A stretch of DNA of 26,285 nt. Origin: a virus (taxonomy: Duplodnaviria; Heunggongvirae; Uroviricota; Caudoviricetes). Position 1 is the first letter of the stretch. Each line of letters begins with the position of its first letter. The stretch spans positions 1-26,285 of IMG/VR virus record IMGVR_UViG_2740892234_000017; one strand, written 5' to 3'. Both the position numbers and the translations under genes were made by a program. Positions 8,124 through 25,642 of this stretch are shown here, piece after piece. Below the pieces are notes generated by a model. It was not told the DNA's origin and did no database searches. It worked only from the letters and a program-made list of their open reading frames with translations.

Positions 8124-8222
8124 GACTACCTCTGAAAAGTCGGGCGGTGGACGCCGGTGCAGTGTCAGGTGATTCACCCTCACTGACCGGCGTGCCGCCC
8201 TGGCGCGGGGCGCATTCGGTTG

Positions 8223-8960
8223 TTAACTGGCTTTCTTTTTCGGGCGTCCACGTTTTGCCGGTGTCACGCTCCGGGTCTTACGTGGGGCGCGGGTGGCCGC
8301 TTTGGGCTGCGGCTTCGGTTTCAGCTCCCGCTCCAGTCGTTCAATCTCTTTTTTGACGCCTGCCTGACAGTCGAGCTGTGTCGCACGTTGCAGGTGCGCC
8401 AGCGCCCCTGCGGCATCACCAGCGTCACGCAGAAACAGACCGGTGATTTTGTGCAGCTTTGCGCGCACTTCATCAGGCATGTCTGCCGTGGCGGTAAGTT
8501 CAAGGGTGTCCGTCAGCAGGCGGGTATCCACGGATTCACCGGCAGCGTGAGCGCGCATGGCCGCGAGTGCCACTTCCTCGGTGAACATGTACGGCGGGGT
8601 GCGGCGGTGTTTACCCGGCATGGTCAGACCGTACTTCAGGGCATAACGGGCAATCTCCAGCGCACCGGCAATATCGCCGGTATCCAGACGCCACAGCATG
8701 ACCGTCATCAGAATGTCATCCTGTGCACCTTTGCCCTGCTCCAGCACGCCGTTCACCCACGGCAACCAGAACGGCAGCAGTTCGCGTTTTTTCGCGGCCT
8801 TCAGCTCTTTTGAATAAATCGCTTTCAGTGTGCGCTGGTCTGCGGCGAGCTTAACCAGCATCTGCTCATAGACAGTTGCATGTCGCAGCGGGGCGGCTTC
8901 CCGCTGCGCGGTCATCGCTGCCGAGACCCGCATCATGTGGCGCTGTGCGGGACTCGTCAT
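8223..8960 (-). CDS. M: Terminase endonuclease (small) subunit M
   Basis: 245 aa with a Lys/Arg/Pro-rich C-terminal tail. Position N-M-L. The start overlaps the N stop. Confidence 0.9.
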   Translation of the reverse strand: MTSPAQRHMMRVSAAMTAQREAAPLRHATVYEQMLVKLAADQRTLKAIYSKELKAAKKRELLPFWLPWVNGVLEQGKGAQDDILMTVMLWRLDTGDIAGALEIARYALKYGLTMPGKHRRTPPYMFTEEVALAAMRAHAAGESVDTRLLTDTLELTATADMPDEVRAKLHKITGLFLRDAGDAAGALAHLQRATQLDCQAGVKKEIERLERELKPKPQPKAATRAPRKTRSVTPAKRGRPKKKAS

Positions 8961-10095: not shown

Positions 10096-10950
10096 TCAGC
10101 AGTTCGTCATCAGGGCGTCACCGCCACCACCGGTGGCCTTGCTGCGGCGCTGCTGGGTCAGACTTTCGGTGTGGTCGAGACTGTTTTTCAGGCGGGTGAA
10201 TGCCTGGCTGGTTTCATCCGCCCTGTCAGTCACCTCCTGCTTAAGTGCGGAAAAGGCGGTTTCCATCTCAGCGAGGCGCTGCTCAGTGGCGCTCAGTTTT
10301 TCCTGCACATGTTCAGCAACAGCGGTCACCGCTTCATGCACGTCATTCAGACGGGCATCATCGCTGGCCTGTTTGCGGCCAAAAATGGACTTCACCTTTT
10401 CGGTCAGGGCGGTGAACACGGTTTCAGGCAGGTCTTCAAATTCCAGCTCAACGGGCGTTGCCACTGAAATCAGGTTTTCAGGGCTTAATTTGAAGCGGTT
10501 CAGGGGGTTGTGTTTTGCCGTGCGGCAGAATTCCAGGTATTCCGTGCCGAGGCTTGCCGGGTCATCGGTGACGGCCAGCCCCACCAGATAACATTTGCCG
10601 GTGTTGGCAAAGTTCGGCTGAATTTCCATTGAGGTGTAGACCTTCTGCGCGGCCTTGTTCATCGCGATAAGGTCATCGGTCGGGGTGATTTTCGCAAACA
10701 GCGCCCATTTGCCTTTCAGCGCCGAATCATCGTCAATCTTTTCGGCCTTCAGTTCGACCACATCGCCATAACGCTTAAAAATACCGTCAGGCAGGATGCC
10801 GCGCAGATGTTCCAGGTTAATGCGGCAACCATAGACTCGCGGGTCAAAGGTTTCGGCCATTTCCTGAATATCCTGCGCACTGATGACACGCCCGTCACAG
10901 GTGTCACCCTCAACGCCGATACGAAAGAATTTTGAGACTTTTTTTGCCAT
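10096..10950 (-). CDS. O: Capsid scaffolding protein O
   Basis: Start trimmed to MAKKVSKFFRIGVEGDTCDGR, giving 284 aa as in P2 gpO. A GGAG-type ribosome-binding site lies upstream. Confidence 0.9.
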   Translation of the reverse strand: MAKKVSKFFRIGVEGDTCDGRVISAQDIQEMAETFDPRVYGCRINLEHLRGILPDGIFKRYGDVVELKAEKIDDDSALKGKWALFAKITPTDDLIAMNKAAQKVYTSMEIQPNFANTGKCYLVGLAVTDDPASLGTEYLEFCRTAKHNPLNRFKLSPENLISVATPVELEFEDLPETVFTALTEKVKSIFGRKQASDDARLNDVHEAVTAVAEHVQEKLSATEQRLAEMETAFSALKQEVTDRADETSQAFTRLKNSLDHTESLTQQRRSKATGGGGDALMTNC

Positions 10951-11123
10951 TGTCAGGAGTCCTGAATAGTGATTAGAGGAGTCACATGTCGGCATCAGTT
11001 TCCCGACGATACGCATCCTCCGCCATCAGTCCCGGATGGCTTATCACTGACACAACAGCACCTTAGCGAATCGCGGGGCGCGACTCAGTAGCCTTGCCGT
11101 GTATTCATCACGGCGAGGTATTC
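10951..11123. promoter_or_regulatory. Divergent late-promoter region between O (leftward) and P (rightward); expected site of the Ogr-activated late promoters
   Basis: A 173-bp intergenic gap between divergently transcribed O and P, as in P2. A manual scan found no perfect TGT-N12-ACA element, so the exact promoter positions are unassigned. Confidence 0.5.
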
Positions 11124-12896
11124 ATGACCATCACCACAGACACCACTCTTTTACACGACCCGCGTCGTCAGGCGGCGCTGCTGTACTGGCAGGGATTTTC
11201 CGTGCCGCAGATTGCCGCCATGTTGCAGATGAAACGCCCGACGGTGCAGAGCTGGAAACAGCGCGACGGCTGGGACAGCGTTGCCCCCATCAGCCGTGTC
11301 GAAATGAGTCTGGAAGCGCGGCTGACCCAGCTCATCATCAAACCGCAGAAAACCGGCGGTGACTTCAAGGAAATTGACCTGCTCGGACGCCAGATTGAAC
11401 GACTGGCACGGGTAAACCGCTACAGTCAGACCGGCAACGAGGCAGACCTTAATCCGAACGTCGCTAACCGCAACAAAGGCGGGCGTCGCAAACCGAAAAA
11501 GAATTTTTTCAGTGACGAGGCCATCGAAAAGCTGGAGCAGATTTTCTTTGAGCAGTCTTTCGACTATCAGTTGCACTGGTATCGCGCCGGGCTTGAGCAC
11601 CGCATCCGCGATATCCTGAAATCCCGCCAGATTGGCGCGACGTTTTATTTTTCCCGCGAGGCGCTGCTGCGCGCCCTGAAAACCGGTCATAACCAGATTT
11701 TTCTGTCGGCCAGTAAAACGCAGGCGTATGTGTTCCGCGAATACATCATCGCCTTTGCCCGGCTGGTTGACGTTGACCTGACCGGTGACCCGATTGTCCT
11801 GGGCAATAACGGCGCAAAACTGATTTTTCTCGGCACCAACTCCAACACCGCACAGAGCCATAACGGCGACCTGTACGTCGACGAGATTTTCTGGATCCCG
11901 AATTTTCAGGTACTGCGTAAGGTGGCATCAGGTATGGCCTCACAGAGCCACCTGCGCTCGACCTATTTCTCCACCCCGTCCACGCTGGCGCACGACGCCT
12001 ACCCATTCTGGTCGGGTGAACTGTTCAACCGGGGACGCGCCAGCGCCGCCGAACGCGTGGAAATCGACGTCAGTCATAACGCCCTTGCCGGGGGGCTTCT
12101 CTGTGCGGACGGCCAGTGGCGGCAGATTGTCACCATTGAGGACGCCCTGAAAGGTGGCTGCACGCTGTTCGACATTGAGCAGCTCAAACGTGAAAACAGC
12201 GCCGACGATTTTAAAAACCTGTTCATGTGTGAATTTGTTGACGACAAGGCGTCGGTGTTCCCGTTCGAGGAGCTGCAACGCTGCATGGTCGACACGCTGG
12301 AAGAATGGGAAGACTATGCGCCGTTTGCCGCGAATCCGTTCGGCTCCCGCCCGGTATGGATTGGTTACGACCCGTCACACCGTGGCGACAGTGCCGGATG
12401 CGTGGTGCTGGCACCGCCGGTGGTGGCCGGTGGCAAATTCAGAATACTTGAGCGTCACCAGTGGAAAGGCATGGACTTTGCCACCCAGGCTGAATCCATC
12501 CGCAAACTCACCGAAAAATACAACGTCGAATACATCGGAATTGATGCCACCGGCCTCGGTGTCGGCGTGTTCCAGCTCGTTCGCTCGTTCTATCCCGCCG
12601 CGCGCGACATCCGCTACACGCCGGAAATGAAAACCGCAATGGTGCTCAAGGCAAAAGACGTTATCCGCCGTGGCTGTCTGGAATATGACGTCAGCGCCAC
12701 CGACATCACCAGCTCGTTTATGGCTATCCGCAAGACCATGACCAGCAGCGGACGCAGCGCCACCTATGAGGCCAGCCGCAGCGAGGAAGCCAGCCACGCC
12801 GACCTCGCCTGGGCGACCATGCACGCCCTGTTAAATGAGCCACTCACCGCCGGTATCAGCACCCCGCTGACATCCACCATTCTGGAGTTTTACTGA
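11124..12896 (+). CDS. P: Terminase ATPase (large) subunit P
   Basis: Start set at the ATG at 11124 (MTITTDTTLLHDPRRQ), which has a GAGG ribosome-binding site; the ORF track begins at an upstream TTG. 590 aa, the same length as P2 gpP. Confidence 0.92.
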   Translation: MTITTDTTLLHDPRRQAALLYWQGFSVPQIAAMLQMKRPTVQSWKQRDGWDSVAPISRVEMSLEARLTQLIIKPQKTGGDFKEIDLLGRQIERLARVNRYSQTGNEADLNPNVANRNKGGRRKPKKNFFSDEAIEKLEQIFFEQSFDYQLHWYRAGLEHRIRDILKSRQIGATFYFSREALLRALKTGHNQIFLSASKTQAYVFREYIIAFARLVDVDLTGDPIVLGNNGAKLIFLGTNSNTAQSHNGDLYVDEIFWIPNFQVLRKVASGMASQSHLRSTYFSTPSTLAHDAYPFWSGELFNRGRASAAERVEIDVSHNALAGGLLCADGQWRQIVTIEDALKGGCTLFDIEQLKRENSADDFKNLFMCEFVDDKASVFPFEELQRCMVDTLEEWEDYAPFAANPFGSRPVWIGYDPSHRGDSAGCVVLAPPVVAGGKFRILERHQWKGMDFATQAESIRKLTEKYNVEYIGIDATGLGVGVFQLVRSFYPAARDIRYTPEMKTAMVLKAKDVIRRGCLEYDVSATDITSSFMAIRKTMTSSGRSATYEASRSEEASHADLAWATMHALLNEPLTAGISTPLTSTILEFY

Positions 12897-13930
12897 TGAG
12901 CAAGAAAAAAGGGAAAACACCGCGACCTGCGGCAAAAACAATGACCGCCAGCGCCCCGAAAATGGAGGCATTCACCTTTGGTGAGCCGGTGCCGGTACTC
13001 GACCGCCGTGACATTCTGGATTACGTCGAATGCATCAGTAACGGCAGATGGTATGAGCCGCCGGTCAGCTTTACCGGTCTGGCAAAAAGTCTGCGTGCTG
13101 CCGTGTATCACAGTTCACCGATTTACGTCAAACGTAATATTCTGGCTTCAACGTTTATCCCGCACCCGTGGCTTTCCCAGCAGGATTTCAGCCGCTTTGT
13201 GCTGGATTTTCTGGTGTTCGGTAATGCGTTTCTGGAAAAGCGTTACAGCACCACCGGTAAGGTCATCAGACTGGAAACCTCACCGGCAAAATATACCCGC
13301 CGTGGCGTGGAGGAGGATGTTTACTGGTGGGTGCCGTCCTTCAACGAGCCGACACCTTTCGCGCCCGGCTCCGTGTTTCACCTGCTGGAGCCGGATATTA
13401 ATCAGGAGCTGTACGGCCTGCCGGAATATCTCAGCGCCCTTAACTCTGCCTGGCTGAATGAATCAGCCACGCTGTTCCGCCGCAAGTATTACGAAAACGG
13501 CGCACATGCCGGATACATCATGTACGTCACCGATGCCGTGCAGGATCGCAACGATATCGAAATGCTTCGCGAAAACATGGTGAAGTCGAAAGGCCGCAAC
13601 AACTTTAAAAATCTGTTTCTCTATGCCCCACAAGGGAAAGCCGACGGCATTAAAATTATCCCGCTCAGTGAAGTGGCGACGAAGGACGATTTTTTTAATA
13701 TCAAAAAAGCCAGTGCCGCAGACCTGCTGGACGCGCACCGCATCCCCTTTCAGTTGATGGGCGGCAAGCCGGAGAACGTCGGGGCGCTGGGTGATATTGA
13801 GAAAGTGGCAAAGGTCTTTGTCCGCAATGAGCTTATCCCGTTACAGGACAGGATTCGGGAAATAAACGGCTGGCTCGGTCAGGAGGTCATCCGCTTTAAA
13901 AACTACTCACTGGACACTGACAACGACTGA
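12896..13930 (+). CDS. Q: Portal protein Q
   Basis: 344 aa, the same length as P2 gpQ. Start overlaps the P stop. Followed by a terminator and the cos site. Confidence 0.92.
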   Translation: MSKKKGKTPRPAAKTMTASAPKMEAFTFGEPVPVLDRRDILDYVECISNGRWYEPPVSFTGLAKSLRAAVYHSSPIYVKRNILASTFIPHPWLSQQDFSRFVLDFLVFGNAFLEKRYSTTGKVIRLETSPAKYTRRGVEEDVYWWVPSFNEPTPFAPGSVFHLLEPDINQELYGLPEYLSALNSAWLNESATLFRRKYYENGAHAGYIMYVTDAVQDRNDIEMLRENMVKSKGRNNFKNLFLYAPQGKADGIKIIPLSEVATKDDFFNIKKASAADLLDAHRIPFQLMGGKPENVGALGDIEKVAKVFVRNELIPLQDRIREINGWLGQEVIRFKNYSLDTDND

Positions 13931-13935
13931 ACATT

Positions 13936-13957
13936 GCCGCCTGCGGGCGGCTTTTTT
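13936..13957 (+). terminator. Rho-independent terminator downstream of Q
   Basis: GCCGCC-TGCG-GGCGGC hairpin followed by TTTTTT. Confidence 0.75.
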
Positions 13958-14099
13958 ACATCCCGTCATCACGCCCTCACACGCTCACCACCGCACAAAA
14001 CACCCCGCAAACACACCAACGCCCCGGTGCACAATCTAAACGCCGTCACGACGCGCTCAGACGCTGAAAAAATAAAATCAGCACCACCGCCAGCGCGCA

Positions 14100-14118
14100 G
14101 TGCTTTCCCCGCCTCGCC
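14100..14118. other. P2-type cos site (19-nt cohesive-end sequence), internal to the prophage
   Basis: GTGCTTTCCCCGCCTCGCC is the reverse complement of the P2 cohesive end as I recall it (GGCGAGGCGGGGAAAGCAC). It lies about 170 bp beyond the Q stop, as in P2. Confidence 0.75.
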
Positions 14119-14359
14119 CGCCCGCTTCATGGGGCGGTTTTAATGCAAACGCATCAGGAAGGGCAGACCTAGTCACATGTAGAATACGATAGCAATAAAA
14201 AAGTCTAATTAGAATGCAAATTGATGCAACTCTATGCCCTCCAAGAACTCCAAACCTGAAAGATTTATGTAAAACATAGTGTTCGTTTCACCAAAATACA
14301 TATAAACTACATTAAAATAGAAATTTGTCTCACCTATAAGCCATTTAGACAACAGATTA

Positions 14360-15523
14360 ATGAGGTTTGTATCACAAATGACCACAAACGAGATACTTTC
14401 GCAGCTTATCAGTCTTGGACTCAAAGGGGATAAAGTTGCTTTTGTTCGGCAGGCTTCGAAACTCGCGCGTTCCTATGATTCTATGGGGCTGCCTGAGCTT
14501 GCTTCAGCCATTAGAGGCAGTATTCAAGATAAAAACACGTTTAACTTGCAGAAAGTATCACGTAGTACATCACCTATTTTTGAACGTCTTGATACATTAC
14601 CTGTAGATAAAGAAACTAAATTTGATTTAGCAGACGTAACTCAACCGTCTTCTGAAATTCAACTCCCATTGTTGAAAGATAGCACTCTGAAAAAAATTAA
14701 AGAATTTTTGACTTTCACTGAACGAGCTAAAGAATTAAAGGATGCCGGTCTTGGCGTGACATCCTCTATGATTTTATATGGGCCACCAGGTTGTGGTAAA
14801 ACCTTGACATCAAAATATATTGCATCCTGTCTAAATTTACCGCTTCTTACTGCAAGATGTGACTCCTTAGTCTCATCATATCTGGGGTCTACTTCTAAAA
14901 ATATCAGGCAGCTATTTGAGTATGCAAGTAAAGCACCATGTGTTTTATTTCTAGATGAACTAGATTCTCTAGCAAAGGCTAGAGATGATCAGCATGAGTT
15001 AGGTGAACTGAAGAGGGTGGTGGTTTCTTTATTGCAAAATATTGACAATCTACCTGAAGAAACAATATTGATTGCTGCAAGTAATCATGAAAATCTTCTA
15101 GATAGCGCAGTTTGGAGGCGCTTTGAGTATAGAATATCTATTGGATTGCCTGATTTTGAAGTCAGAAAACAACTATTTGAACAATATTCAAACATAAAAG
15201 CCACATATGACGATTTTGTTGATGACCTTGCGGAAATATCCTCAGGGCTAAACTGCTCATTTATAGAACAATGCTGCTTAAGATCTGAGCGACATGCTCT
15301 GGTTTACAATAATAAACAAATCGATACCCGATTTTTAGTCGAGGCTATCTTAGAAGCGAAGGGAGTTACATTTGATGAAGAAGATAATTTACTTATAAAG
15401 ATTGTGACCACTCTCAGAGAATACAATCCCAAAAGATTTACAATACGAAAGATAGCAAAAATACTAGGGCTTTCAAATGCTAAAGTGTCAAGGCTAACTA
15501 AGAACTATAGAGAGATATTATGA
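14360..15523 (+). CDS. AAA+ ATPase, candidate IetA-like component of a two-gene ATPase/protease defence system
   Basis: 387 aa. Walker A GPPGCGKT, Walker B VLFLDELD, sensor-1 AASNH, arginine-finger-like AVWRRF. AT-rich codon usage unlike the P2 backbone. An alternative start is the ATG at 14378. The stop overlaps the protease start (ATGA). Confidence 0.85.
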   Translation: MRFVSQMTTNEILSQLISLGLKGDKVAFVRQASKLARSYDSMGLPELASAIRGSIQDKNTFNLQKVSRSTSPIFERLDTLPVDKETKFDLADVTQPSSEIQLPLLKDSTLKKIKEFLTFTERAKELKDAGLGVTSSMILYGPPGCGKTLTSKYIASCLNLPLLTARCDSLVSSYLGSTSKNIRQLFEYASKAPCVLFLDELDSLAKARDDQHELGELKRVVVSLLQNIDNLPEETILIAASNHENLLDSAVWRRFEYRISIGLPDFEVRKQLFEQYSNIKATYDDFVDDLAEISSGLNCSFIEQCCLRSERHALVYNNKQIDTRFLVEAILEAKGVTFDEEDNLLIKIVTTLREYNPKRFTIRKIAKILGLSNAKVSRLTKNYREIL

Positions 15524-17784
15524 GTAACAAAGAAAGACCAATAAAAATAATTGAGGCGACACCTCAAGATTTTACTGAAAAAACATATAATTTCGGAAAG
15601 AAACAACCTATCCGAACAGTAACAACTAGTCTAAAAAATAGACTCAAACAAGAAGTCGATGACGTTAAAAATTTTTTCCAGAGCTCATTTAAAAAATGGC
15701 CCAATATACCGGCGGTGGCTAGAGTTACTCTTCATGAAAAAGCTCTTGCTAAGTCACATCGCCCATCAAGCCTATTAGGTGATAATACATGTCCCGTAAT
15801 AGGCAGTGATAATTTTGGAGAATTACTTATAAGTGTTACTGAAAAAGGGTTAGCACAACTTCGCAAAAAAATTGAAAATAGCACTAATTCTCATAATGGG
15901 ACAGTACATATTGCTGTAATTGAAAAGATCGAACCTTTTAGTCTTAACCATGATGTTATAGATAAAAATAAATCAGATAGTTTTCTTCTGAAACTCTTTG
16001 ACCATAAAGATAGAACAACTAACCGCAGTATCGACAAAGAATTAATGGAATTTGCAGATGAACTAGGAATACAAAAACCCAAAAAGTATGATATCAGTTC
16101 AGATTTGAGTATATATGAAGTAAAAGGGAATGATAACATCGCCCAACTGGCAAGTTTTATTGGCATACGAAAATTAGAACCTATGCCAACATTTGGTCTT
16201 ACTCATACAGTATCGCAATATATTCCTGCTGAAACTCTAGACCTAGATGATTTTCCCTTACCTCAAGAGGATAAACATTATCCACTACTCGGAATTATAG
16301 ATAGCGGAGTCGATCCCAATAACAACATACTTAGGCCATGGATTTGGGATAGTTTAGATTTAGTAAAAGGAGAACACGACTATTCTCATGGGAACATGGT
16401 TGCAAGTTTAGCAATTAATGGAAGATGGTTGAATAACTATGCTGGTTTTCCTCAATGCCAAGCTGAAATTGTTGATGTTGCAGCCTTTCCCAAAGATGGT
16501 ACGCTCAAATTGCCACAATTAATGAAAGCTATCCGAGAGGCTGTGACCACCTATCCAGAAGTACGTGTATGGAACCTGTCATTAGGTTGTCAATCCCCAT
16601 GTTCTGAAGACAGCTTCTCTGAATTGGGGCATTTTTTAAATGCACTTCATGATGAGCATGATTGTCTTTTCGTCGTAGCATCCGGCAACTACATTTATGA
16701 TCCTCAACGAACCTGGCCTCCTCAAGAATTAGGTGGGCATGACAGAATATCAGCCCCCGCAGATTCTGTTCGTTCATTAACTGTTGGCTCAGTTGCCCAT
16801 TTAGAATCGTCTGACTCTGTGGTCAAAAGATTTGAACCTTCATCTTTTTCTAGAAGAGGTCCCGGCCCAGCCTTTATACCCAAACCAGAGATAAATCACT
16901 TTGGAGGTAATTGTGACAGTAAATTAAACTGTGAACATACCGGAATCATAGCTATTGGCGAGGACAATGCTCTTTGCGAAAGTATTGGCACAAGTTTATC
17001 AGCACCGTTAATCTCAAGTTTAGCGGCATCACTGTGGCATGAACTAGATGTTAATGGTTCTATTTCACCATCGCCTGAACGTATCAAGGCACTATTAATT
17101 CATTCTGCGTTAAAAAACTCACCAGCCAAAACGGAGCATTATGCGTTTAATTATCAAGGATTTGGACGCCCAAGCGATCATATAAATGATATTATTGGTT
17201 GCAATAAAAATGAGATTACATTTCTATTTGAAATAGATACCCGAGAAGGTATTGAATTCAGTAGAACGCCATTTGTAATACCACAGTCATTACGTACTGA
17301 GGATGGAAAATTCACAGGTGAAATTATTATGACACTCGTTTATTCTCCACCGCTTGATTATGACTACCCATCTGAATATTGCCGTTCTAATGTGGATGTG
17401 TCATTCGGGACTTACACTTATGATCCAGTTAACGCTAAATGGATACATAGCGGAAAAATTCCACAAATAAAAGAAAAGAGTGAATTATTTGAAAAGGTAC
17501 TGATAGAAAATGGCTTCAAATGGTCTCCAGTCAAAGTTTATAGAAAACAATTTCCGCAAGGTATAAATGGGGAGCAATGGAGACTTAAACTTGATGTTCA
17601 GAGACGAGCAGAGCAAGAGCCTCTATCTTCACCTCAACGTGCTGTATTGGCTATTACGTTAAGATCTCTTGCCAATTCTACTACAGTCTACAACGAAGCC
17701 GAGGTTGAAATAAATAATCTTGGTTGGAAAGAAACTGATATTGTTGTTCGTGAACAACCAAAAATCAGGATTCGTCAAAAATAA
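15520..17784 (+). CDS. Subtilisin-like serine protease (peptidase S8) with N- and C-terminal extension domains, candidate IetS-like component
   Basis: 754 aa. Catalytic triad motifs in canonical order: Asp (GIIDSGVD), His (HGNMVASLA), Ser (GTSLSAPLISS). Translationally coupled to the upstream ATPase. Confidence 0.85.
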   Translation: MSNKERPIKIIEATPQDFTEKTYNFGKKQPIRTVTTSLKNRLKQEVDDVKNFFQSSFKKWPNIPAVARVTLHEKALAKSHRPSSLLGDNTCPVIGSDNFGELLISVTEKGLAQLRKKIENSTNSHNGTVHIAVIEKIEPFSLNHDVIDKNKSDSFLLKLFDHKDRTTNRSIDKELMEFADELGIQKPKKYDISSDLSIYEVKGNDNIAQLASFIGIRKLEPMPTFGLTHTVSQYIPAETLDLDDFPLPQEDKHYPLLGIIDSGVDPNNNILRPWIWDSLDLVKGEHDYSHGNMVASLAINGRWLNNYAGFPQCQAEIVDVAAFPKDGTLKLPQLMKAIREAVTTYPEVRVWNLSLGCQSPCSEDSFSELGHFLNALHDEHDCLFVVASGNYIYDPQRTWPPQELGGHDRISAPADSVRSLTVGSVAHLESSDSVVKRFEPSSFSRRGPGPAFIPKPEINHFGGNCDSKLNCEHTGIIAIGEDNALCESIGTSLSAPLISSLAASLWHELDVNGSISPSPERIKALLIHSALKNSPAKTEHYAFNYQGFGRPSDHINDIIGCNKNEITFLFEIDTREGIEFSRTPFVIPQSLRTEDGKFTGEIIMTLVYSPPLDYDYPSEYCRSNVDVSFGTYTYDPVNAKWIHSGKIPQIKEKSELFEKVLIENGFKWSPVKVYRKQFPQGINGEQWRLKLDVQRRAEQEPLSSPQRAVLAITLRSLANSTTVYNEAEVEINNLGWKETDIVVREQPKIRIRQK

Positions 17785-17789
17785 GCATT

Positions 17790-17814
17790 ATGGTCACCTT
17801 TTATAGGTGACCAT
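17790..17814. terminator. Perfect hairpin between convergent operons, a candidate bidirectional terminator
   Basis: ATGGTCACC-TTTTATA-GGTGACCAT: a 9-bp perfect stem between the protease stop (17784) and the membrane-protein stop (17818). There is no strong U-tract on either strand. Confidence 0.5.
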
Positions 17815-17817
17815 TTA

Positions 17818-18579
17818 CTACACCTTATTATTTTCAACTATTTTATGAATATCCATATCAAACCAAGAAACTTGCGAAATTTCTTTTAGTGGAAAGATGA
17901 TACTAGTATCAGCATCCTCAAGTTCTCTATATTCATTCACCAAGATTACTTTCAATGAATCCTTATCTCTATACCCAGAGATAATAGGATAGATTGAAAC
18001 ATACTGGTTAGGTCCTTCTTTCTCGTTAGGCTCACCTAATGCGTTAACAATTCCTACATATGTCTTTTTATTTTGCAACGTAATAAGTATTGAACGTCTA
18101 TCAACTAACGAATCAAAAAATATTTCATCCATTGGATTATCATTAATAAGCTCTTGCCTCATCCTTAGCATGACAAGATTCTCATAATCAATATTGGCAG
18201 CCTTTACCCCTTGGATATAATTTATAATTTTAGCTCTATATATAACCAAATATCTAGCACCGGCACTCCATATCCAAGCCAAAAATATCGATCCACATGA
18301 AAGTAAAATCATCCATCCTATGATTCTTTCAGTACCATTATCACTAAGTTTGAGATCTAATTGTTCCCGAACCATCGTGACAGGATGGAAGCTCGGACAT
18401 ATCCATTTTATTAAGTAAGCTATAATCAATGTCCATATAAAACACCACAGACCAAAGGCGGCTGACTTCATATATAACAACTGCCCATCATAACGGTGTA
18501 ATCTATAGAAATGATAAGGATGAGTGGTTAATACAATATAACCACTCACAAGTAATGGAATAATTAATAAAGCAAACAT
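17818..18579 (-). CDS. Hypothetical membrane protein with about three N-terminal transmembrane helices and a soluble C-terminal domain
   Basis: 253 aa. Hydrophobic segments at roughly residues 1-18, 39-57 and 87-103. AT-rich. Translationally coupled to the upstream 78-aa gene. No recognisable catalytic motif. Confidence 0.7.
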   Translation of the reverse strand: MFALLIIPLLVSGYIVLTTHPYHFYRLHRYDGQLLYMKSAAFGLWCFIWTLIIAYLIKWICPSFHPVTMVREQLDLKLSDNGTERIIGWMILLSCGSIFLAWIWSAGARYLVIYRAKIINYIQGVKAANIDYENLVMLRMRQELINDNPMDEIFFDSLVDRRSILITLQNKKTYVGIVNALGEPNEKEGPNQYVSIYPIISGYRDKDSLKVILVNEYRELEDADTSIIFPLKEISQVSWFDMDIHKIVENNKV

Positions 18580-18581
18580 TA

Positions 18582-18818
18582 TTAATTCCCTTTAGCCATT
18601 TTTTCTTCTTGCTTTACCTGCTCAGAAACTATTCTTCTTGCTTTAATTTTCATCAATTTTACTGTATCTGAGCTTGCCAAGTCTTCTTTAGACGTGATAA
18701 TCGCGCCTCGACCTACCACCTCAACAGTGTTTGTTCCAGATGCTTCAAGCCTCCTCGCCAGTTCTCTTTCCTTTTCAATGGCAGCTTTACCTATAATACG
18801 TTCAAATATATTCATCAT
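18582..18818 (-). CDS. Hypothetical small protein (78 aa), first gene of a two-gene operon with the membrane protein
   Basis: Strong ribosome-binding site (GGAGG-TTAA-ATG). Charged, probably cytoplasmic. Function not recognised. Confidence 0.65.
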   Translation of the reverse strand: MMNIFERIIGKAAIEKERELARRLEASGTNTVEVVGRGAIITSKEDLASSDTVKLMKIKARRIVSEQVKQEEKMAKGN

Positions 18819-19126
18819 TTAACCTCCACTTGATTGATGCCAAGATAGTAATCACCTCCTCACAATATCTTACCAACCTAACAATTAACAGAACACTGTG
18901 TATAAGTCCAGTATAGTTTAATTAATAAATTAGGCAAATCTATCAAAATGGTATTTTGTTAAAAATTCAGCTAACTCTGAGGTTGGTAAAACAGTCCACC
19001 AGATGTATCGCTAAAGCACTTAGAAACCACTATAACCATCCTAAGTGTACCAGTCAGTCTGTTTGTCTAATCGCATCACTATGCTCGTTATTCTATCCCC
19101 CGCCAATCCTGAGCTGGCTGCGTTCT

Positions 19127-19345
19127 CTATCGTCTGCGTGGTGGCGATGCAGCGCTGGACTGACCGATATAGCTAAGCCATACGTAATTATCCCGGACTA
19201 TTTCGGCACACCCGACTAGCTCATCGGGCGTCAGATTTTCGTTGACCATAATCTGCTGTAGACGGTGAACAATGGCCATCAGCTTGATATTTTTAGTTTT
19301 ATGGTGCGGTATCTCGCCTGGTATTCTGTGCATTATCCAAGCCAC
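19127..19345 (-). CDS. Small hypothetical ORF at the junction of the P2 backbone and the AT-rich cargo; may be a remnant of a displaced gene
   Basis: 72-aa ORF with backbone-like GC content. No recognisable motif. Weakly supported. Confidence 0.25.
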   Translation of the reverse strand: MAWIMHRIPGEIPHHKTKNIKLMAIVHRLQQIMVNENLTPDELVGCAEIVRDNYVWLSYIGQSSAASPPRRR

Positions 19346-19788
19346 CCGTTTTGCGGTGCACGCTCCATCTGTTCATCTGAATAGTTCCATGCTCCATCCG
19401 TGGCAACCATTGCCCCGCCAGACATCCCCGTCTCTGGTTCATACATAACAGCAAGGCCGAGCTGATGCATAATTTCATGATTAATTCTGAATACCAGACC
19501 ACGCTCACTAAGTTCTTTCCAGTTCACAATCTCATATGCGCCTGTATTAAGCAGCTCAATACTTAGCAAGACATAATCTTCCAGCCAATCTGACAGGTCA
19601 GTAACATCTGTTATCCGGGCTTCAACCTTTCGCCCCGTATACACACCCTGCACCCATTCATGCAAAATCAACGTGTCCCCGTGCTCATAATTACGGTCAT
19701 TTTTCCTAAACTCTGCGCGTTTCTTTCCTTCCAGCACAAGGTCGAAATATTTTGCGTGCAGCTTTACCTCGTGAATTTTTGCCATCAT
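19333..19788 (-). CDS. Hypothetical protein with an N-terminal ASCH-like / DUF3850-type domain, downstream of A
   Basis: Start set at the ATG overlapping the A stop (ATGATGG). MAKIHEVKLHAKYFDLVLEGKKRAEFRKNDRNYEHGDTLILHEW resembles the DUF3850/ASCH pattern as I recall it. 151 aa. Confidence 0.6.
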   Translation of the reverse strand: MMAKIHEVKLHAKYFDLVLEGKKRAEFRKNDRNYEHGDTLILHEWVQGVYTGRKVEARITDVTDLSDWLEDYVLLSIELLNTGAYEIVNWKELSERGLVFRINHEIMHQLGLAVMYEPETGMSGGAMVATDGAWNYSDEQMERAPQNGWLG

Positions 19789-22070
19789 GTCCACTCCATT
19801 ACTGTTGAGAATCCCGGCCACTCATCAGCGACCGGATACGTGAATTTTTTCCCGTCATAATTTACGGTTGCCCCACGCGCCAGCGCCTCAATCTCCCATC
19901 GCTGCGGCCTGATACCGTTCTGAGCAAGGTCAACGCGGATACGGGTAATTTGCGTTCGTTCCGACCGGGTCAGTCTGGCCGATGGCGCTATTTCATGTGG
20001 TTTTAACAGGCTTCCGTTTCTCTGCTGACGATTTGGTGTTCTCAGTCCGTGTTTTAATGCACCTCTGAGCGCCCTCACGACCTCTGGCTCATTCCATTCG
20101 ATAACACCGTCATCAACCAGATTAAGCACGGCTGCGGCATGTTCAGAAGGTGTGGGAACCGGTAACGAAGTATCACCACCGGAGAGCTTTCCACAGTTAT
20201 TGACAGGACTCCGAGGCGCGGCGATGCCGCTTTTTAAAGTCAAAGGCTCAACGACCGGAACTTTCGGCACGATGCGCCAGTCCGTCGTTCTGGTGATATG
20301 AATATGACGCGCGCCGAGATGCGGCGCGTAAATGCCGACCACTCTCTCGACTTCTTCCTCGTACTCGTTAACTTCATCCGACGGGCTACGGGCGACCCTG
20401 ACAGTCTGACAATCGCGCGGGACATTTGCCCCGCCCTGCGCGCTGATATACAACGCAAAATCGCCACTGTCTGCGGCGGCGCGTGCAGCCTCCACGCGTT
20501 CGTCAAATTCATCAGCAATGCTGACGCCGCGAGGCAATTTACGTAGCTCACGGTAAGCTCCCATTGTCGGCAGGCCAACCGTTTTAAATTGCGGGATGCG
20601 CCACGTTGACGCCCATGCGGTAACAGCCGCCGCAGTATCTTTCAGCGGTCTGCCGGTATCGTTATCGAGCTGACCATCCAGTGCATAGCCGTCGATATTT
20701 TTTGAAATGTATTTCGCGATATATCCCGCAGCACCGCCCCGGTTAAGGTGTTTTGCCTGAAAACGGTTTCGCGCGGCTCCTCTTTCGTCGCCATCCTCTT
20801 TGAGCGCATAGCGACGCATGATTTCGATAATCTGGTTACGCTGGCGTGGATTACAAAAAAGCATCATATGCCAGTGCGGCGTTCCGTCGTGGTGTGGCTC
20901 GACGACTCGCAAACCGTAGACCTGTAAATCATTATCCTTGAATGCCGTGCGCATCAGGCTCCAGATACGGCAGAGATAACGCTGCGCATCCTTTGGATTA
21001 AATGCCTCATCATTCCAGCCGTGATTAAGCTGGACGGTTTTATTTTCGCCTTTTCCAACCTGACGTGTCGGGTGATACTTTGACGGCGCGGTAAGCGTGA
21101 TAAACATCCCCACATCACCCTCTGAGGCGGCGTAACGCTCAATACCGGCAATGGTGTTCATCAGCTCCATCCGGCGAATTTCAGGATTAGAAATACTGCC
21201 CATCACCTTACTGATAAGGTCGATGCGCTCGCCGGTTTCCCTGTTTTCAAGGTCACACGATTTAAGAAATTCCAGATTTGCCTGGCGGCGCGCACGCACA
21301 TCACGAATGGCATGTTTACTGGCATAAGGTGAACGGTCTTTATTGACCTCCCCGACAGCAATCAGTAACGCCTCATGCCAGCGCATACGCTGGCCTTTAA
21401 GCTGACTAATCCACCACTCATCGTTAAACAGGCGGGCAATGGCAGAATATGCCTGCCTCGTGGTCATCTGTCCTTTACGGTATTTTTTCCAGTAGAGAGG
21501 GGAAATATTGAAAGCACGTGCAGCGCCAGCAACATGACCATACAGATGCGCCTGCGCCTCATCTGTAAACAGCGATTCTTTCTCGCCATGTGCATCAACC
21601 CATGCATCGCAAAGTTCCTCATACATCATGAAAAGCTGCGATGAGATACGGGCGGCAAACTTTTTCAGCTCCTTGTCATTCATCCCCGGCAGACGCGCAT
21701 AATGGTCACGCTCTGCCAGAAACAGCAACGACGCGTCGGTGTTCATTTCATGGCGCTGATTCACGCGCTCAATACGCGGCCATAAACGGCGCTGAAAAGT
21801 GGATGTGAGGAAATAAAACCCGTGCACCGGGCTTTTATTGCGCCGGATGTAGTCATAGCGTGAAGTAAACAGCGAGCGCAAAAAGTAAGGCAGGCGATTA
21901 ATCGTGGATAAAACACCTTGCACCTGACGCATCTCGTCACGTGTAAGGGGTCTTTCGCGCCCGACGGCCTCGCGTGGCGCGTTCCATGCATAAGCACCGG
22001 TAAACGTCTCACCGGTGCCTGCGGCAAATGCTGACGGAGGGACAAAACGCCCGGAGGCTTTAACGGCCAT
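19785..22070 (-). CDS. A: Replication initiation protein A (rolling-circle initiator)
   Basis: Start trimmed to MAVKASGRFVPPSAF, giving 761 aa as in P2 gpA. Contains the VVEPHHDGTPHWHMMLF and GYIAKYISKN regions typical of P2 A-type initiators. Confidence 0.92.
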   Translation of the reverse strand: MAVKASGRFVPPSAFAAGTGETFTGAYAWNAPREAVGRERPLTRDEMRQVQGVLSTINRLPYFLRSLFTSRYDYIRRNKSPVHGFYFLTSTFQRRLWPRIERVNQRHEMNTDASLLFLAERDHYARLPGMNDKELKKFAARISSQLFMMYEELCDAWVDAHGEKESLFTDEAQAHLYGHVAGAARAFNISPLYWKKYRKGQMTTRQAYSAIARLFNDEWWISQLKGQRMRWHEALLIAVGEVNKDRSPYASKHAIRDVRARRQANLEFLKSCDLENRETGERIDLISKVMGSISNPEIRRMELMNTIAGIERYAASEGDVGMFITLTAPSKYHPTRQVGKGENKTVQLNHGWNDEAFNPKDAQRYLCRIWSLMRTAFKDNDLQVYGLRVVEPHHDGTPHWHMMLFCNPRQRNQIIEIMRRYALKEDGDERGAARNRFQAKHLNRGGAAGYIAKYISKNIDGYALDGQLDNDTGRPLKDTAAAVTAWASTWRIPQFKTVGLPTMGAYRELRKLPRGVSIADEFDERVEAARAAADSGDFALYISAQGGANVPRDCQTVRVARSPSDEVNEYEEEVERVVGIYAPHLGARHIHITRTTDWRIVPKVPVVEPLTLKSGIAAPRSPVNNCGKLSGGDTSLPVPTPSEHAAAVLNLVDDGVIEWNEPEVVRALRGALKHGLRTPNRQQRNGSLLKPHEIAPSARLTRSERTQITRIRVDLAQNGIRPQRWEIEALARGATVNYDGKKFTYPVADEWPGFSTVMEWT

Positions 22071-22335
22071 ATGAGCCAAAAGCCTCTGAACAACGCTTGC
22101 TGAGTTGCTCAACCTGCGCGTTTAAATCAGCAAAAGACTTTGCGCTTCCGGTCAGAATATCGTGATGCATCAGGCCGGAAACGAGCTGGCTTAATTTCGG
22201 GTAATAACCAACCACCGCCAACCATTCCTGACCGGCGTTTTTACCGCTTTCAGCTCTCTTTTTCTCGTGGAGAATAAACTGAAAGCTGTCACTGGTAACG
22301 ACATAACGTTCGCCAATTTCAATACGAATACTCAT
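22060..22335 (-). CDS. Small early-operon protein (P2 orf80-83 region)
   Basis: 91 aa. Immediately upstream of A, as in the P2 early operon. Confidence 0.7.
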   Translation of the reverse strand: MSIRIEIGERYVVTSDSFQFILHEKKRAESGKNAGQEWLAVVGYYPKLSQLVSGLMHHDILTGSAKSFADLNAQVEQLSKRCSEAFGSYGR

Positions 22336-22556
22336 GCCGTTCTCCGGTAATGTTTGTTTTTTGCTTCAAAGACTGACTGGCAGGAAACACAACGCGTGGC
22401 TGACGGATAAGCCGCACGACGGGCAGCAGGTATTGGCGCGTCACACTCTTCGCAAACCAGCGCAGAAACACCGCAATGCTTTACCCTTGCCGCGTTAATC
22501 TGGCGCTCCAGTAATTCAGCCTGTTGTTCCTGAATAAAATCTACGTTGTCCGGCAT
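22332..22556 (-). CDS. Small early-operon zinc-finger protein (TraR/DksA-like C4 type)
   Basis: 74 aa with CEEC-X17-CVSC cysteine pairs. Position within the P2 early operon. Confidence 0.7.
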   Translation of the reverse strand: MPDNVDFIQEQQAELLERQINAARVKHCGVSALVCEECDAPIPAARRAAYPSATRCVSCQSVFEAKNKHYRRTA

Positions 22557-22861
22557 TACCAGCTCCTTTTGTCGTTAAGTTTTTTAAATTCATCAGCGCA
22601 ATAGCTGGCAATTTCTGTCGTTAATTTCGTCAGTTCATCCACGGAGGAGATTTGCTTGTGAAATACAGCGCGTTTAACAAGTAAATTGACCACATCAGAC
22701 AGGAGATTTAATTCGTTCTGATAAATCGCGATAACTGACTCAGTTATTTCGCGTTTTTCTTTATCAAGACCAAGTTGAATAAGAGATAAATCGCCATTTT
22801 TCATAACGGCGATTTTTAAGGCGTTATTCAGTAATACAACTGAACGAGAACAGGACATCAA
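22556..22861 (-). CDS. Small early-operon hypothetical protein
   Basis: 101 aa. ATGA-coupled to its neighbours. Confidence 0.65.
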
Positions 22862-23115
22862 AGCACCTCCCCGCGAGACAATCCGATATTGTGAAATTTT
22901 TCCGACTCCTGACTGAGCAGCTCGACTATCTCCACGCGGGATAACTCCGCCTTTGTGATGTGGCGAATCATGGCGTCAAGATGAGAAGAAAAGCGCGTCG
23001 CTGCGTCGGCCTGTGCTTCGGTTCTGGCCTGTTGCAGCAGTAATGCGTATTTACCGCACTGATTTTCAGAAACTGTATGCATGACTTTCTCCAGGCAAAA
23101 AGAAGCCCCGCACAA
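22858..23115 (-). CDS. Small early-operon hypothetical protein
   Basis: 85 aa. Position between B and the next small orf. Confidence 0.65.
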
Positions 23116-23145
23116 TTAAGTGCGTTAAAAACTCTGGTTAATTAC

Positions 23146-23646
23146 TTAATGCAGATATTGCTCTGGTTTTACCGACGTCAGAATTGTCGGTGCATACTCA
23201 AACAGGCTGAATAATTCACGTAATGCACGGAATAAAGCATCACGCCAGTAACATGATTCTTCATTAATTCGCCAGTATGGCTGGTTGAATTCTTTTTCAG
23301 TCAATCCGGCATGCATAAATAAAGTACGACGCTGACTGACTGTTAAAAAACTAATATATGCATACTCACTTGCGCCAACCTGACGGCGTTTTGAGAATGC
23401 CCCACGCAATTCATCAATTGCACATACCAGTCGTTCACGTTCGACATCATTCATTTCTTCAAAACGCATCGTTGCGTGACGCTGTTTTAACTGCGCATGG
23501 AAGCAAACCGTTAGCCGTTCGCGTTCCATCATCTGATTATAATAATCGCATGTCTCCTGCCAGCGAGGGACGGCAAGATGCTTACCAATTATCCGGCGCA
23601 TAGCTGCTGGCTGTTTTTCGACGAGATTAAGCGTCATCACTGTCAT
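23146..23646 (-). CDS. B: Replication protein B (helicase-loader-like)
   Basis: 166 aa, the same length as P2 gpB. Position cox-small orf-B as in P2. Confidence 0.88.
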   Translation of the reverse strand: MTVMTLNLVEKQPAAMRRIIGKHLAVPRWQETCDYYNQMMERERLTVCFHAQLKQRHATMRFEEMNDVERERLVCAIDELRGAFSKRRQVGASEYAYISFLTVSQRRTLFMHAGLTEKEFNQPYWRINEESCYWRDALFRALRELFSLFEYAPTILTSVKPEQYLH

Positions 23647-23837
23647 TTCCAGACCCTCCGGCTTTTCAGAAAGGTCAGAGCCTTTTTTAACGGACTCTGT
23701 TTTTTGGTGCGGATAATGATTCCCTTACGCCCCTTACCGTGGGTGATGTTGAAGTCAATCGCCCTGGGGCTTTCGTTACGCAGTAACTGAGCAATACAAC
23801 GAGGCTCATTCATACGGTTCTCCTTAACGTGGTTCAC
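23643..23837 (-). CDS. Small early-operon hypothetical protein (P2 orf78 position)
   Basis: 64 aa, basic. Between cox and B. Confidence 0.6.
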   Translation of the reverse strand: MNHVKENRMNEPRCIAQLLRNESPRAIDFNITHGKGRKGIIIRTKKQSPLKKALTFLKSRRVWK

Positions 23838-24099
23838 CGAGACCTAACCACATCAACCAGCCGTCACGAATCTCTTTAGGGCGGCTTTCATAAGCCAGTT
23901 TTAGTCCGTTATTCCATGCCGGAAGGTATACCCAATATTCACCTGCACGACCTGAAGCTGATTGTGGATCGGTCATATCAATTACAGGCAGCTTTCCTTT
24001 ATCGATCATCCGACGAACCGCTCCTGTCGATTTTCCTATTAGTTTTGCGAACTCCTGATAAGGAATCGCATCAGTCATGAGTGTTACTTGCTTGCTCAT
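23824..24099 (-). CDS. cox: Cox: excisionase-like directionality factor and repressor of the lysogenic promoter
   Basis: 91 aa, the same length as P2 Cox. Divergent from C. Confidence 0.9.
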   Translation of the reverse strand: MSKQVTLMTDAIPYQEFAKLIGKSTGAVRRMIDKGKLPVIDMTDPQSASGRAGEYWVYLPAWNNGLKLAYESRPKEIRDGWLMWLGLGEPR

Positions 24100-24213
24100 G
24101 TCGTCCTCCAGCCCTCATGAATTGCGTTTAATGCCTTATAATGCCTTTTAGTGCCCACATCCAAGCACTAAACAATCTACATCTAAACTAAATACTATTG
24201 AGATCTAAACACC
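24100..24213. promoter_or_regulatory. Immunity switch region (face-to-face Pe/Pc promoters) with two 8-bp direct-repeat operator half-sites
   Basis: ATCTAAAC occurs as a direct repeat at 24181-24188 and 24203-24210, 22 bp centre to centre, the geometry I recall for P2 repressor C operators. A perfect TATAAT is at 24137-24142. Confidence 0.6.
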
Positions 24214-24513
24214 ATGTCAAACACGATAAGCGAGAAGATAGTCTTAATGCGAAAATCAGAGTATTTGAGCAGACAACAACTTGCTGATTTAACAGGGGTT
24301 CCGTATGGCACGCTGAGTTACTATGAAAGTGGTCGTTCAACACCTCCAACAGATGTCATGATGAACATCCTGCAGACCCCACAATTCACCAAATACACTT
24401 TATGGTTCATGACCAATCAGATCGCTCCTGAGTCCGGGCAAATTGCGCCCGCTCTCGCACACTTTGGGCAAAACGAAACAACGTCGCCCCACTCCGGTCA
24501 AAAGACTGGTTAA
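24214..24513 (+). CDS. C: Immunity repressor C
   Basis: 99 aa, the same length as P2 C. HTH-like segment LSRQQLADLTGVPYGTLSYYESG. Confidence 0.9.
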   Translation: MSNTISEKIVLMRKSEYLSRQQLADLTGVPYGTLSYYESGRSTPPTDVMMNILQTPQFTKYTLWFMTNQIAPESGQIAPALAHFGQNETTSPHSGQKTG

Positions 24514-24628
24514 CAATTCATCGTGAATATATTCATCACAAGTGCCTACTATTGGTGGCTAAATTTCAGCCACCACGAAAAAAGCGATTAGTAGTCGCCA
24601 AAAAACACACCACTCGGAGGGTTTTCTG

Positions 24629-25642
24629 ATGGCAATCAAAAAACTCGATGATGGTCGATATGAAGTGGACATCCGCCCTACTGGACGTAATGGAAAACGC
24701 ATCCGTAGGAAGTTTGATAAGAAAAGCGAAGCTGTCGCTTTCGAGAAATACACGTTGTACAACCACCACAATAAAGAATGGCTATCAAAACCAACAGACA
24801 AGCGACGTCTGTCGGAGCTGACACAGATCTGGTGGGATTTAAAGGGTAAACACGAAGAGCATGGGAAATCTAATCTTGGAAAAATTGAAATCTTCACAAA
24901 AATAACGAATGACCCATGCGCATTTCAAATTACGAAATCGCTTATCAGCCAGTACTGCGCCACCCGAAGAAGTCAGGGTATTAAACCTTCGAGTATCAAT
25001 CGTGATTTAACATGTATTAGCGGCATGTTTACAGCCCTGATTGAAGCGGAGTTATTCTTTGGTGAGCACCCTATCAGAGGGACAAAAAGGCTTAAGGAGG
25101 AAAAACCAGACACAGGCTATCTCACGCAGGAAGAAATTGCCTTACTGCTTGCTGCTCTTGACGGCGACAATAAAAAGATTGCGATTCTTTGCCTGAGTAC
25201 TGGAGCACGTTGGGGAGAAGCAGCTCGTTTGAAAGCAGAAAATATCATCCATAACCGCGTCACGTTTGTTAAAACGAAAACAAACAAACCACGCACCGTC
25301 CCGATCTCAGAGGCTGTTGCCAAAATGATCGCGGATAACAAACGAGGTTTTTTATTCCCTGATGCTGATTACCCTCGCTTCAGACGAACAATGAAAGCAA
25401 TAAAACCGGATTTGCCAATGGGGCAAGCCACACATGCACTAAGGCACAGCTTTGCCACTCATTTCATGATTAATGGAGGAAGTATTATCACGCTACAACG
25501 GATACTAGGTCACACGCGGATTGAGCAAACTATGGTTTACGCTCATTTTGCGCCAGAGTACCTTCAGGACGCCATTTCTCTTAATCCGCTAAGAGGTGGT
25601 ACTGAGGCCGAGAGTGTCCACACAGTGTCCACAGTAGAGTAA
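24629..25642 (+). CDS. int: Tyrosine integrase
   Basis: 337 aa, the same length as P2 Int. C-terminal catalytic region HALRHSFATH...LGHTRIEQTMVYAH (R, H-x-x-R, Y motifs). Located next to the att core. Confidence 0.92.
   Translation: MAIKKLDDGRYEVDIRPTGRNGKRIRRKFDKKSEAVAFEKYTLYNHHNKEWLSKPTDKRRLSELTQIWWDLKGKHEEHGKSNLGKIEIFTKITNDPCAFQITKSLISQYCATRRSQGIKPSSINRDLTCISGMFTALIEAELFFGEHPIRGTKRLKEEKPDTGYLTQEEIALLLAALDGDNKKIAILCLSTGARWGEAARLKAENIIHNRVTFVKTKTNKPRTVPISEAVAKMIADNKRGFLFPDADYPRFRRTMKAIKPDLPMGQATHALRHSFATHFMINGGSIITLQRILGHTRIEQTMVYAHFAPEYLQDAISLNPLRGGTEAESVHTVSTVE

Follow-up and report, generated by a model that had tools for sequence, protein, structure and literature searches.

IetAS in the cargo hotspot of a P2-like prophage travels with a widespread small-protein and membrane-protein gene pair

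IetAS, originally a Ti-plasmid toxin-antitoxin system, was reportedly presented as a defence system by Gao et al. 2020. It was first described as a plasmid-stabilising toxin-antitoxin pair in which a protease is the toxin and an ATPase the antitoxin; at other loci its defence is reported to need the protease activity, and its anti-phage mechanism is considered unresolved (PMC13069673). In one variant, ietHAS (Liu-DS4), IetAS has recruited an essential helicase (PMC13069673). The gpA-gpQ region beside cos is in turn described as a diversity hotspot of P2-like phages by Rousset et al. 2022, who counted 1,650 arrangements across 18,150 E. coli loci and found many to be anti-phage (PMC9122126). 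Here we analyse a stretch of 26,285 nucleotides, positions 1 to 26,285 of IMG/VR record IMGVR_UViG_2740892234_000017 (the window), which is a P2-like prophage in the order tail and head genes, P, Q, cos, island, A, B, cox, C and int. The island carries two convergent operons (Table 1), a rightward one that is almost certainly IetAS, and a leftward pair encoding a 78-aa small protein and a 253-aa membrane protein. What is new here is that the IetAS subtype of the window travels with this unstudied and widespread pair, the latter combining a small protein with a membrane/Sm protein, as one cassette.

The position of the island, from Q/cos to A with old and tin replaced, is identical to that of the hotspot of Rousset et al. 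2022, and the original prediction on this DNA, made from its letters without database searches, was right to regard it as a recognised site of swappable cargo (PMC9122126). The arrangement is catalogued there in at least two entries of Table S5A, as AAA/HTH_50, Peptidase_S8, hypotheticals and DUF3850/ASCH, and these entries include WP_000066157 (protease) and WP_000457800 (membrane protein). As far as the available part of that paper goes, the arrangement is not among the three validated systems of the hotspot besides old-tin and the AC1 system, Iet is unmentioned in the main text, and the two hypothetical genes are left unanalysed (PMC9122126). As a phenomenon the island is therefore already known, the hotspot being published, the system known and the arrangement catalogued.

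For the rightward operon, we found the organisation of known IetAS, an AAA+ ATPase gene followed by an overlapping S8 protease gene: ietA and ietS are adjacent and co-oriented, and the ietA stop and the ietS start overlap by 4 nt (15520-15523). A defence-profile search with PADLOC recovered both genes (Table 1), the matches spanning residues 9-382 of the 387-aa IetA (381 aa from the in-frame ATG at 14378 used by RefSeq) and residues 1-747, that is the full length, of the 754-aa IetS. The Walker A (GPPGCGKT, 141-148) and Walker B (VLFLDE, 195-200) motifs of IetA are both intact, as are the Asp, His and Ser motifs of IetS (DSGV at 261, HGNMVA at 290 and GTSLSAP at 490). RefSeq labels the products 'AAA family ATPase' and 'S8 family peptidase'. 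The NCBIfam IteA/IteS equivalogs were the top matches, yet both fell below cut-off (387 versus 510 bits and 782 versus 900 bits), and identity to the E. coli IteA/IteS named by NCBIfam was 34-36%. Because of these sub-cut-off scores and the ~35% identity to the named IteS, the operon is a diverged subtype, which differs from known IetAS both by this divergence and by the convergent two-gene membrane module present in all examined close relatives. The C-terminus of IetA (residues ~306-382; window 15280-15523) is HTH-like, with a weak sigma-70 region-4-like NCBIfam match (E 0.015) and a match to a terminase-small-subunit HTH PHROG, and its homologue is listed as 'AAA/HTH_50' in the Rousset table (PMC9122126), which suggests that this antitoxin-like ATPase may bind DNA or regulate its own expression.

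The two operons lie on the + strand (14360-17784) and on the - strand (17818-18818), and several lines of evidence from sequence comparison show that their four genes form a single mobile cassette. A diverged four-gene copy, with 52-59% protein identity, is present in E. coli lambdoid Rac-like prophages, with the replication genes on one side and the nin-like region on the other, and a close relative of this lambdoid copy sits in the gpA-gpQ slot of a Scandinavium P2-like prophage. When a lambdoid locus (L005) was compared with the Scandinavium P2-like locus (L020), the only sequence in common was one block of 4,718 nt at 77% identity; its extent is exactly that of the four genes (ietA, ietS and those for the membrane protein and the small protein), together with ~100 nt ahead of either operon. 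At their right ends, the shared cassette homologies stop at ~18931-18961. The pair was present in 6/6 viral loci whose IetS is >=60% identical to that of the window and in 0/32 loci at <=43%, and it accompanied the window IetAS type in 15/15 E. coli genomes. In a tree of the membrane protein, the IetAS-linked copies form one clade, whose only IetAS-free members are Arsenophonus pseudogenes. Furthermore, dS has reached saturation in all four genes, at similar levels, so the linkage between IetAS and the pair is old. The description of the cargo as two convergent operons was thus accurate as to their presence and layout but not as to their separateness, since they travel as one four-gene cassette.

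Two observations bear on the edges and the fate of this cassette. About 120 bp (14148-14270) and about 150 bp (18961-19113) of the cargo fall outside the shared four-gene block, and the right-hand stretch is also absent from Enterobacter and Citrobacter P2-likes with the same cassette; these stretches may be scars of earlier cargo exchanges. In the Arsenophonus endosymbionts (loci L019, L021 and L014, ~7750-8770), whose copies are the nearest relatives of the pair that lack IetAS, the membrane gene has in-frame stops or frameshifts and the small gene is seemingly intact, with no IetAS remnants beside these copies even at E<=1. Because of the in-frame stop codons, the Arsenophonus copies are a case of gene decay in reduced genomes.

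What holds the two operons together could be functional coupling, synergy or hitch-hiking. If the four genes were one integrated system, the pair would be an obligatory accessory of the IetAS subclade, with, for example, IetS cleaving the small protein and so freeing the membrane/Sm effector, or with the pair modulating the toxicity of IetA/IetS as IetH does. Such a system would be compatible with a linkage that has no exception within the subclade, that has a single origin and was kept through ~45% protein divergence with saturated dS, and that moves the four genes as a block between unrelated backbones despite a highly recombinogenic hotspot; moreover, IetAS has a precedent for recruiting an essential extra gene (PMC13069673). 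That precedent, ietHAS, resembles the window in being an IetAS variant that keeps extra gene content, the accessory genes being essential and modulating toxicity there (PMC13069673). However, its extra gene belongs to the same operon and encodes an SNF2 helicase, whereas the extra genes of the window encode small and membrane/Sm proteins in a separate convergent operon, and this module is also widespread alone. Against integration, every locus at <=47% identity has the pair but no IetAS, and IetAS occurs without the pair in 32/38 viral loci. The operons are also convergent, each putatively with its own promoter, and are separated by a terminator hairpin that is probably bidirectional. In an outgroup IetAS locus, moreover, the convergent position is taken by an unrelated PanA toxin-antitoxin pair, suggesting that the position is a slot for independent modules. 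Because both modules are common alone and the outgroup carries the PanA pair in the same position, obligatory coupling is argued against, and we consider one integrated system unlikely; that the pair is functionally wired to IetAS at all is, in our view, equally doubtful. The outgroup, an IMG/VR contig with IetS 43% identical (L097, 2336-9383), has a GmrSD_C-domain protein upstream and, convergent to ietS, the Panacea-domain (PanA) antitoxin with a 120-aa partner, and makes up a small defence island laid out as in the window.

The pair is conserved far beyond this cassette. One search returned 241 clusters at 90% identity for the membrane-protein family, and an exhaustive search returned 2,598 representatives at 50% identity, nearly all of 240-340 aa and matching end to end. 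We surveyed the partner gene in 56 species-representative and 9 viral loci, 57 of which have an intact full-length membrane gene: in ~42 of these 57 an ORF of 59-85 aa with the VVGRG motif lies directly upstream, overlapping the membrane gene or separated from it by <= ~20 nt, with stop and start often overlapping, and a few distant or truncated loci have an unrelated small ORF or none in that place. The small partner was seen in every proteobacterial group sampled, across Gamma-, Beta- and Alphaproteobacteria (Enterobacterales, Pseudomonas, Lautropia, Asticcacaulis, Novosphingobium and Legionella), and no third conserved partner was found near the pair. Values of dN/dS are 0.02-0.08 for both genes (0.05-0.08 for the 78-aa gene), matching the range seen for ietA and ietS, and the pair is under purifying selection. 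Given the recurrent upstream partner, the lack of a third conserved gene near the pair and the low dN/dS, we regard the pair as a self-contained, selected and mobile unit, and very probably as an autonomous, conserved two-gene module.

This module recurs in accessory slots of at least five temperate phage types. It lies in the gpA-cos hotspot of two other P2-like genera, represented by Salmonella phage SEN5, where it adjoins a methylase, and by Klebsiella phage ST15-OXA48phi14.1 (L089 3783-6492, Gegavirus), where a distant pair of 72 aa and 280 aa is followed by a 69-aa ORF and the known defence gene bSEFIR (PADLOC 6.9e-103). It is found in the int-attP interval of Cronobacter phage phiES15, next to the integrase at a prophage end in E. 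coli (a variant on >800 contigs) and in Klebsiella, beside Arc and an antirepressor in another prophage (immI-like region), and at the genome ends of two Pseudomonas phages. Such placement is what would be expected of a gene that benefits the lysogen, such as one with a defence or exclusion function, and is circumstantial evidence for one. The homologues of the pair in SEN5, phiES15 and the Klebsiella phage had no match in PADLOC-DB v2.0.0 at E<=0.01. A link to the AC1 system Rst_2TM_1TM_TIR, considered because of ST15-OXA48phi14.1, was discarded: the neighbouring TIR gene there is bSEFIR, a separate single-gene system, and the window has no TIR gene.

Within the leftward operon of the window, the stop of the 78-aa gene and the start of the membrane gene are separated by a 2-nt gap, and a GGAGG stands 5 nt upstream of the ATG of the 78-aa gene. 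Promoters were sought in the island, with weak -35/-10 candidates at 18937-18910 and 19057-19029 for this operon; the consensus scan performed at chance (19 found, 18.2 expected), and none is claimed. Neither protein has a Pfam (E<=0.01), PADLOC or NCBIfam match, their sole family memberships are PHROG families of unknown function, public sources call both hypothetical, and the literature search returned no mention of them. In an AF2 model, the 78-aa protein is a helix, a beta-hairpin with VVGRG and a long helix, without a compact fold (pLDDT 76, pTM 0.40), and it has no structural relative in Foldseek (nothing at E<1) and no Pfam or PDB relative. An AbrB/MazE-like antitoxin fold, suspected from the VVGRG hairpin, was dismissed after a Pfam search with 25 diverse members gave no match, and matches to PDB 'Pizza' designer propellers were recognised as artefacts that sum single beta-hairpins at 5-6 bits per repeat.

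For the 253-aa protein, the AF2 model (pLDDT 78) shows, beyond the predicted three transmembrane segments, a bent beta-barrel of five strands with a helix at its N-terminal side, superposable on Sm proteins. The domain is not a member of Pfam LSM, Hfq or WYL (E<=0.01), a PDB profile search gave nothing relevant, and a BFVD fold search gave weak matches to small Sm-like phage proteins and nothing more. Compared with the Sm/LSm/Hfq and WYL barrels (Hfq 1kq1; DriD, BrxR, CapW), the domain of the window thus lacks sequence membership and, where those barrels are soluble or HTH-fused, is joined to three transmembrane helices. By analogy with these barrels, it may form a ring and bind RNA or other nucleic acid. 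Two further candidates were rejected: homology to Tin, raised by an ORF of exactly the length of P2 Tin (253 aa), gave an hhalign probability of 0.2% and nothing by tblastn, and an MscS-like channel, considered for the architecture of three transmembrane segments and an Sm-like beta-domain, found no sequence or structural match.

We hypothesise, with somewhat better than even confidence in the whole, that the island is acquired cargo consisting of one mobile four-gene cassette, in which IetAS is joined by the pair as a second defence or superinfection-exclusion device; whether the pair itself is anti-phage we take to be an even call. In the rightward operon, according to the literature, the IetS protease would be the toxic effector and the IetA ATPase would restrain it, in an abortive-infection action akin to that of toxin-antitoxin systems. 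In the leftward operon, the 253-aa membrane protein would be the effector, and its cytoplasmic Sm-like domain could serve in ring oligomerisation and/or in sensing a nucleic-acid or protein cue, as WYL/Sm domains do elsewhere. The small partner, kept stoichiometric through translational coupling, would restrain the effector or relay a signal, acting like an antitoxin or a sensor, and infection would then free the membrane effector, so that the membrane is compromised or entry is blocked. Lambda RexAB is a two-gene exclusion/abortive-infection module with a membrane component, and like the pair it is prophage-borne, has one integral membrane partner and occupies an accessory slot. The likeness is an analogy only: there is no sequence or fold relationship, and in the pair of the window the membrane protein is the larger partner and has a cytoplasmic domain.

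Several points weigh against this reading. The Sm fold is assigned from an AF2 model whose pLDDT is 78, the promoter scan of the island was not above chance, and IetA and IetS fall below the NCBIfam equivalog cut-offs, so that their activity is extrapolated from a diverged relative. Since PADLOC, candidate systems to 2023 included, gave no match for the pair, its defence role rests on guilt by association, and the expectation in the original prediction that the cargo would be defence-related, borne out by IetAS in the rightward operon, extends to the leftward pair as something we infer. Outside enterobacteria the neighbours are mostly housekeeping, and the defence signal is weak, with 2 SMODS and 2 AAA_21 among 148 neighbouring proteins.

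This last setting raises the question of a physiological role. In Pseudomonas, Lautropia, Asticcacaulis and others the pair stands amid housekeeping genes (MFS, GGDEF, TonB receptors), and in the Pseudomonas oryzihabitans group it recurs in about a dozen genomes with near-identical gene geometry and a 1-nt stop/start overlap, which suggests vertical inheritance at a chromosomal site and not prophage carriage. The pair could on these grounds serve lysogenic conversion or a physiological membrane function, for example as a channel (ion or stress) or by modifying the envelope, outside any phage conflict. Nevertheless, enterobacterial copies are almost always prophage-borne and in hotspot positions, no transport or enzyme domain is detectable, and the linkage to a defence system was retained over a long divergence, so that we give this reading very little credence.

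At the same time, two translationally coupled genes encoding a small protein and then a membrane protein, adjacent, co-transcribed and co-inherited as their spacing and the recurrent upstream ORF indicate, are what a plain toxin-antitoxin module looks like. As an addiction module without an anti-phage role, the pair would stabilise the cassette or the prophage; it is mobile, patchy and present at many unrelated chromosomal sites, and IetAS itself was first known as a plasmid-stabilising toxin-antitoxin system (PMC13069673). On the other hand, neither protein resembles known toxin-antitoxin families in Pfam, NCBIfam, PADLOC or PDB, and the repeated phage accessory slots beside defence genes fit defence at least equally well. 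The two readings overlap, since phage defence is a property of many toxin-antitoxin modules, and addiction without defence seems to us quite improbable. We retain the reading of the pair as a second defence or exclusion module beside IetAS.

Table 1. Features of the cargo island and its flanks, by position in the window.
Feature	Coordinates	Strand	Evidence
gpQ portal gene, left conserved flank	12896..13930	+	Pfam Phage_portal 8e-14
tQ-like intrinsic terminator after Q	13936..13951	+	GC-rich hairpin then T-run
cos site, 19 nt, reverse complement of P2 GGCGAGGCGGGGAAAGCAC	14100..14118	.	read directly
AT-rich cargo island, 4,966 bp, fills tin/old slot	14148..19113	.	blastn breakpoints with P2 and vB_YpM_50
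ietA, AAA+ ATPase, probable C-terminal HTH	14360..15523	+	PADLOC IetA PDLC02196 9.1e-132; Pfam AAA 1e-31
ietS, S8 subtilase-family protease	15520..17784	+	PADLOC IetS PDLC02197 1.1e-273; Pfam Peptidase_S8 7e-24
Hairpin, 10-bp stem, between convergent stop codons	17790..17814	.	terminator-like scan
253-aa membrane protein, phrog_3630	17818..18579	-	three transmembrane segments and cytoplasmic Sm/Hfq-like beta-barrel (predicted)
78-aa soluble partner protein, phrog_37504	18582..18818	-	PHROG match 2.8e-53
Non-coding leader of leftward operon	18819..19113	-	promoter inferred
72-aa ORF, phrog_11386	19127..19345	-	PHROG match 6e-38
DUF3850/ASCH + DUF7415 gene, right edge of variable zone	19333..19821	-	Pfam DUF3850 1e-17, DUF7415 1.7e-14
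gpA replication initiator, right conserved flank	19785..22112	-	Pfam Phage_GPA 1.6e-123

That the island is horizontally acquired hotspot cargo is practically certain, from its position between Q/cos and A, its variable content between conserved flanks and a composition unlike that of the backbone. The P2 cos, GTGCTTTCCCCGCCTCGCC, was found at 14100-14118 as a 19-nt cohesive end, and the cargo begins 29 bp past it. In blastn, homology to P2 (NC_001895), which is 97% identical over window positions 10617-14147, stops at 14147 and restarts at 19565, from where identity is 96.5%, and homology to other P2-like phages (vB_YpM_50) restarts already at 19114. The slot of P2 contains orf91, tin and old; no homologue of Tin or Old was found anywhere in the window (best tblastn E 0.08 for Tin and 0.2 for Old), and of P2 Orf91 the N-terminal 75 residues alone are kept, 96% identical at 19564-19788. 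The GC content of the cargo is 0.366, versus exactly 0.560 for the left and 0.476 for the right backbone, the sliding-window GC drops from 0.52-0.62 to 0.32-0.43 across ~14250-19100, and GC3 of the four cargo genes is 0.25-0.32 versus 0.54-0.72 in P, Q and A. The original prediction had described an AT-rich island of about 5 kb and about 35% GC at 14119-19130, lacking tin and old and with content unrelated to morphogenesis or replication, and all of this held: 14119 is the first base after cos and 19130 lies within 20 bp of the 19114 breakpoint.

The whole island was found in 12/5,426 complete E. coli genomes, versus 2,160 in which the flanks match, and in other records the same slot holds methylases, ParB, cytolethal distending toxin (cdt), HEPN nucleases and other genes. 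E. coli 90-9281 (NZ_CP024243) has DNA identical to window positions ~14150-19110. No convincing direct or inverted repeats were found at the cassette ends, and a search for structured RNAs in the island gave just two sub-threshold chance matches.

On the left flank, P2 annotates tQ at the equivalent relative position after Q to that of the terminator-like hairpin in the window. A second GC-rich hairpin with a T-tract (CCGCCCGCTTCATGGGGCGG TTTT) occupies 14118-14137, beginning at the final base of cos on the cargo side and falling within the 29 bp still homologous to the right end of P2; it may act as a terminator that insulates the cargo, or belong to the terminase recognition region. On the right flank, the gene with DUF3850/ASCH and DUF7415 is the counterpart of P2 orf91, and longer, and the 72-aa ORF is a semi-conserved P2-like accessory gene that is present in vB_YpM_50 and Wphi and not in P2. 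The stretch 19114-19565, with the phrog_11386 ORF and the C-terminal portion (DUF7415) of the DUF3850/ASCH gene, is common to many P2-like phages (Wphi gp91/gp92, vB_YpM_50) and not to P2, and is a second, semi-variable layer of the hotspot. Further right, a second and milder GC dip (0.42-0.45) covers 22250-25250, over the early/immunity region on the side of B, cox, C and int; this region has 98.5% identity to some P2-like phages and <80% to others. It is probably a mosaic immunity region of the usual kind.

Both IetAS and the hotspot have by now reached textbook level, and to that extent the island mainly confirms a known pattern. The added value lies in the leftward pair, a large family without a Pfam model or a name and with an unusual architecture of three transmembrane segments and an Sm/Hfq-like barrel, which has remained bound to a single IetAS subclade over deep divergence and despite transfer between phage families. 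Because of the size of the family, its architecture, its recurrence in accessory slots and its lock-in with IetAS, the pair stands out as a concrete candidate for a defence or exclusion system of a new kind, and it could be an entry point to the mechanism of IetAS. It is a long shot that the pair represents a new, widespread family of prophage-borne anti-phage systems (abortive infection or exclusion) built around a membrane-anchored Sm-like ring and wired to IetAS, for instance through IetS acting on the small protein. If IetS does act on the small protein and thereby unleashes the membrane effector, IetAS would gain a defined downstream target.

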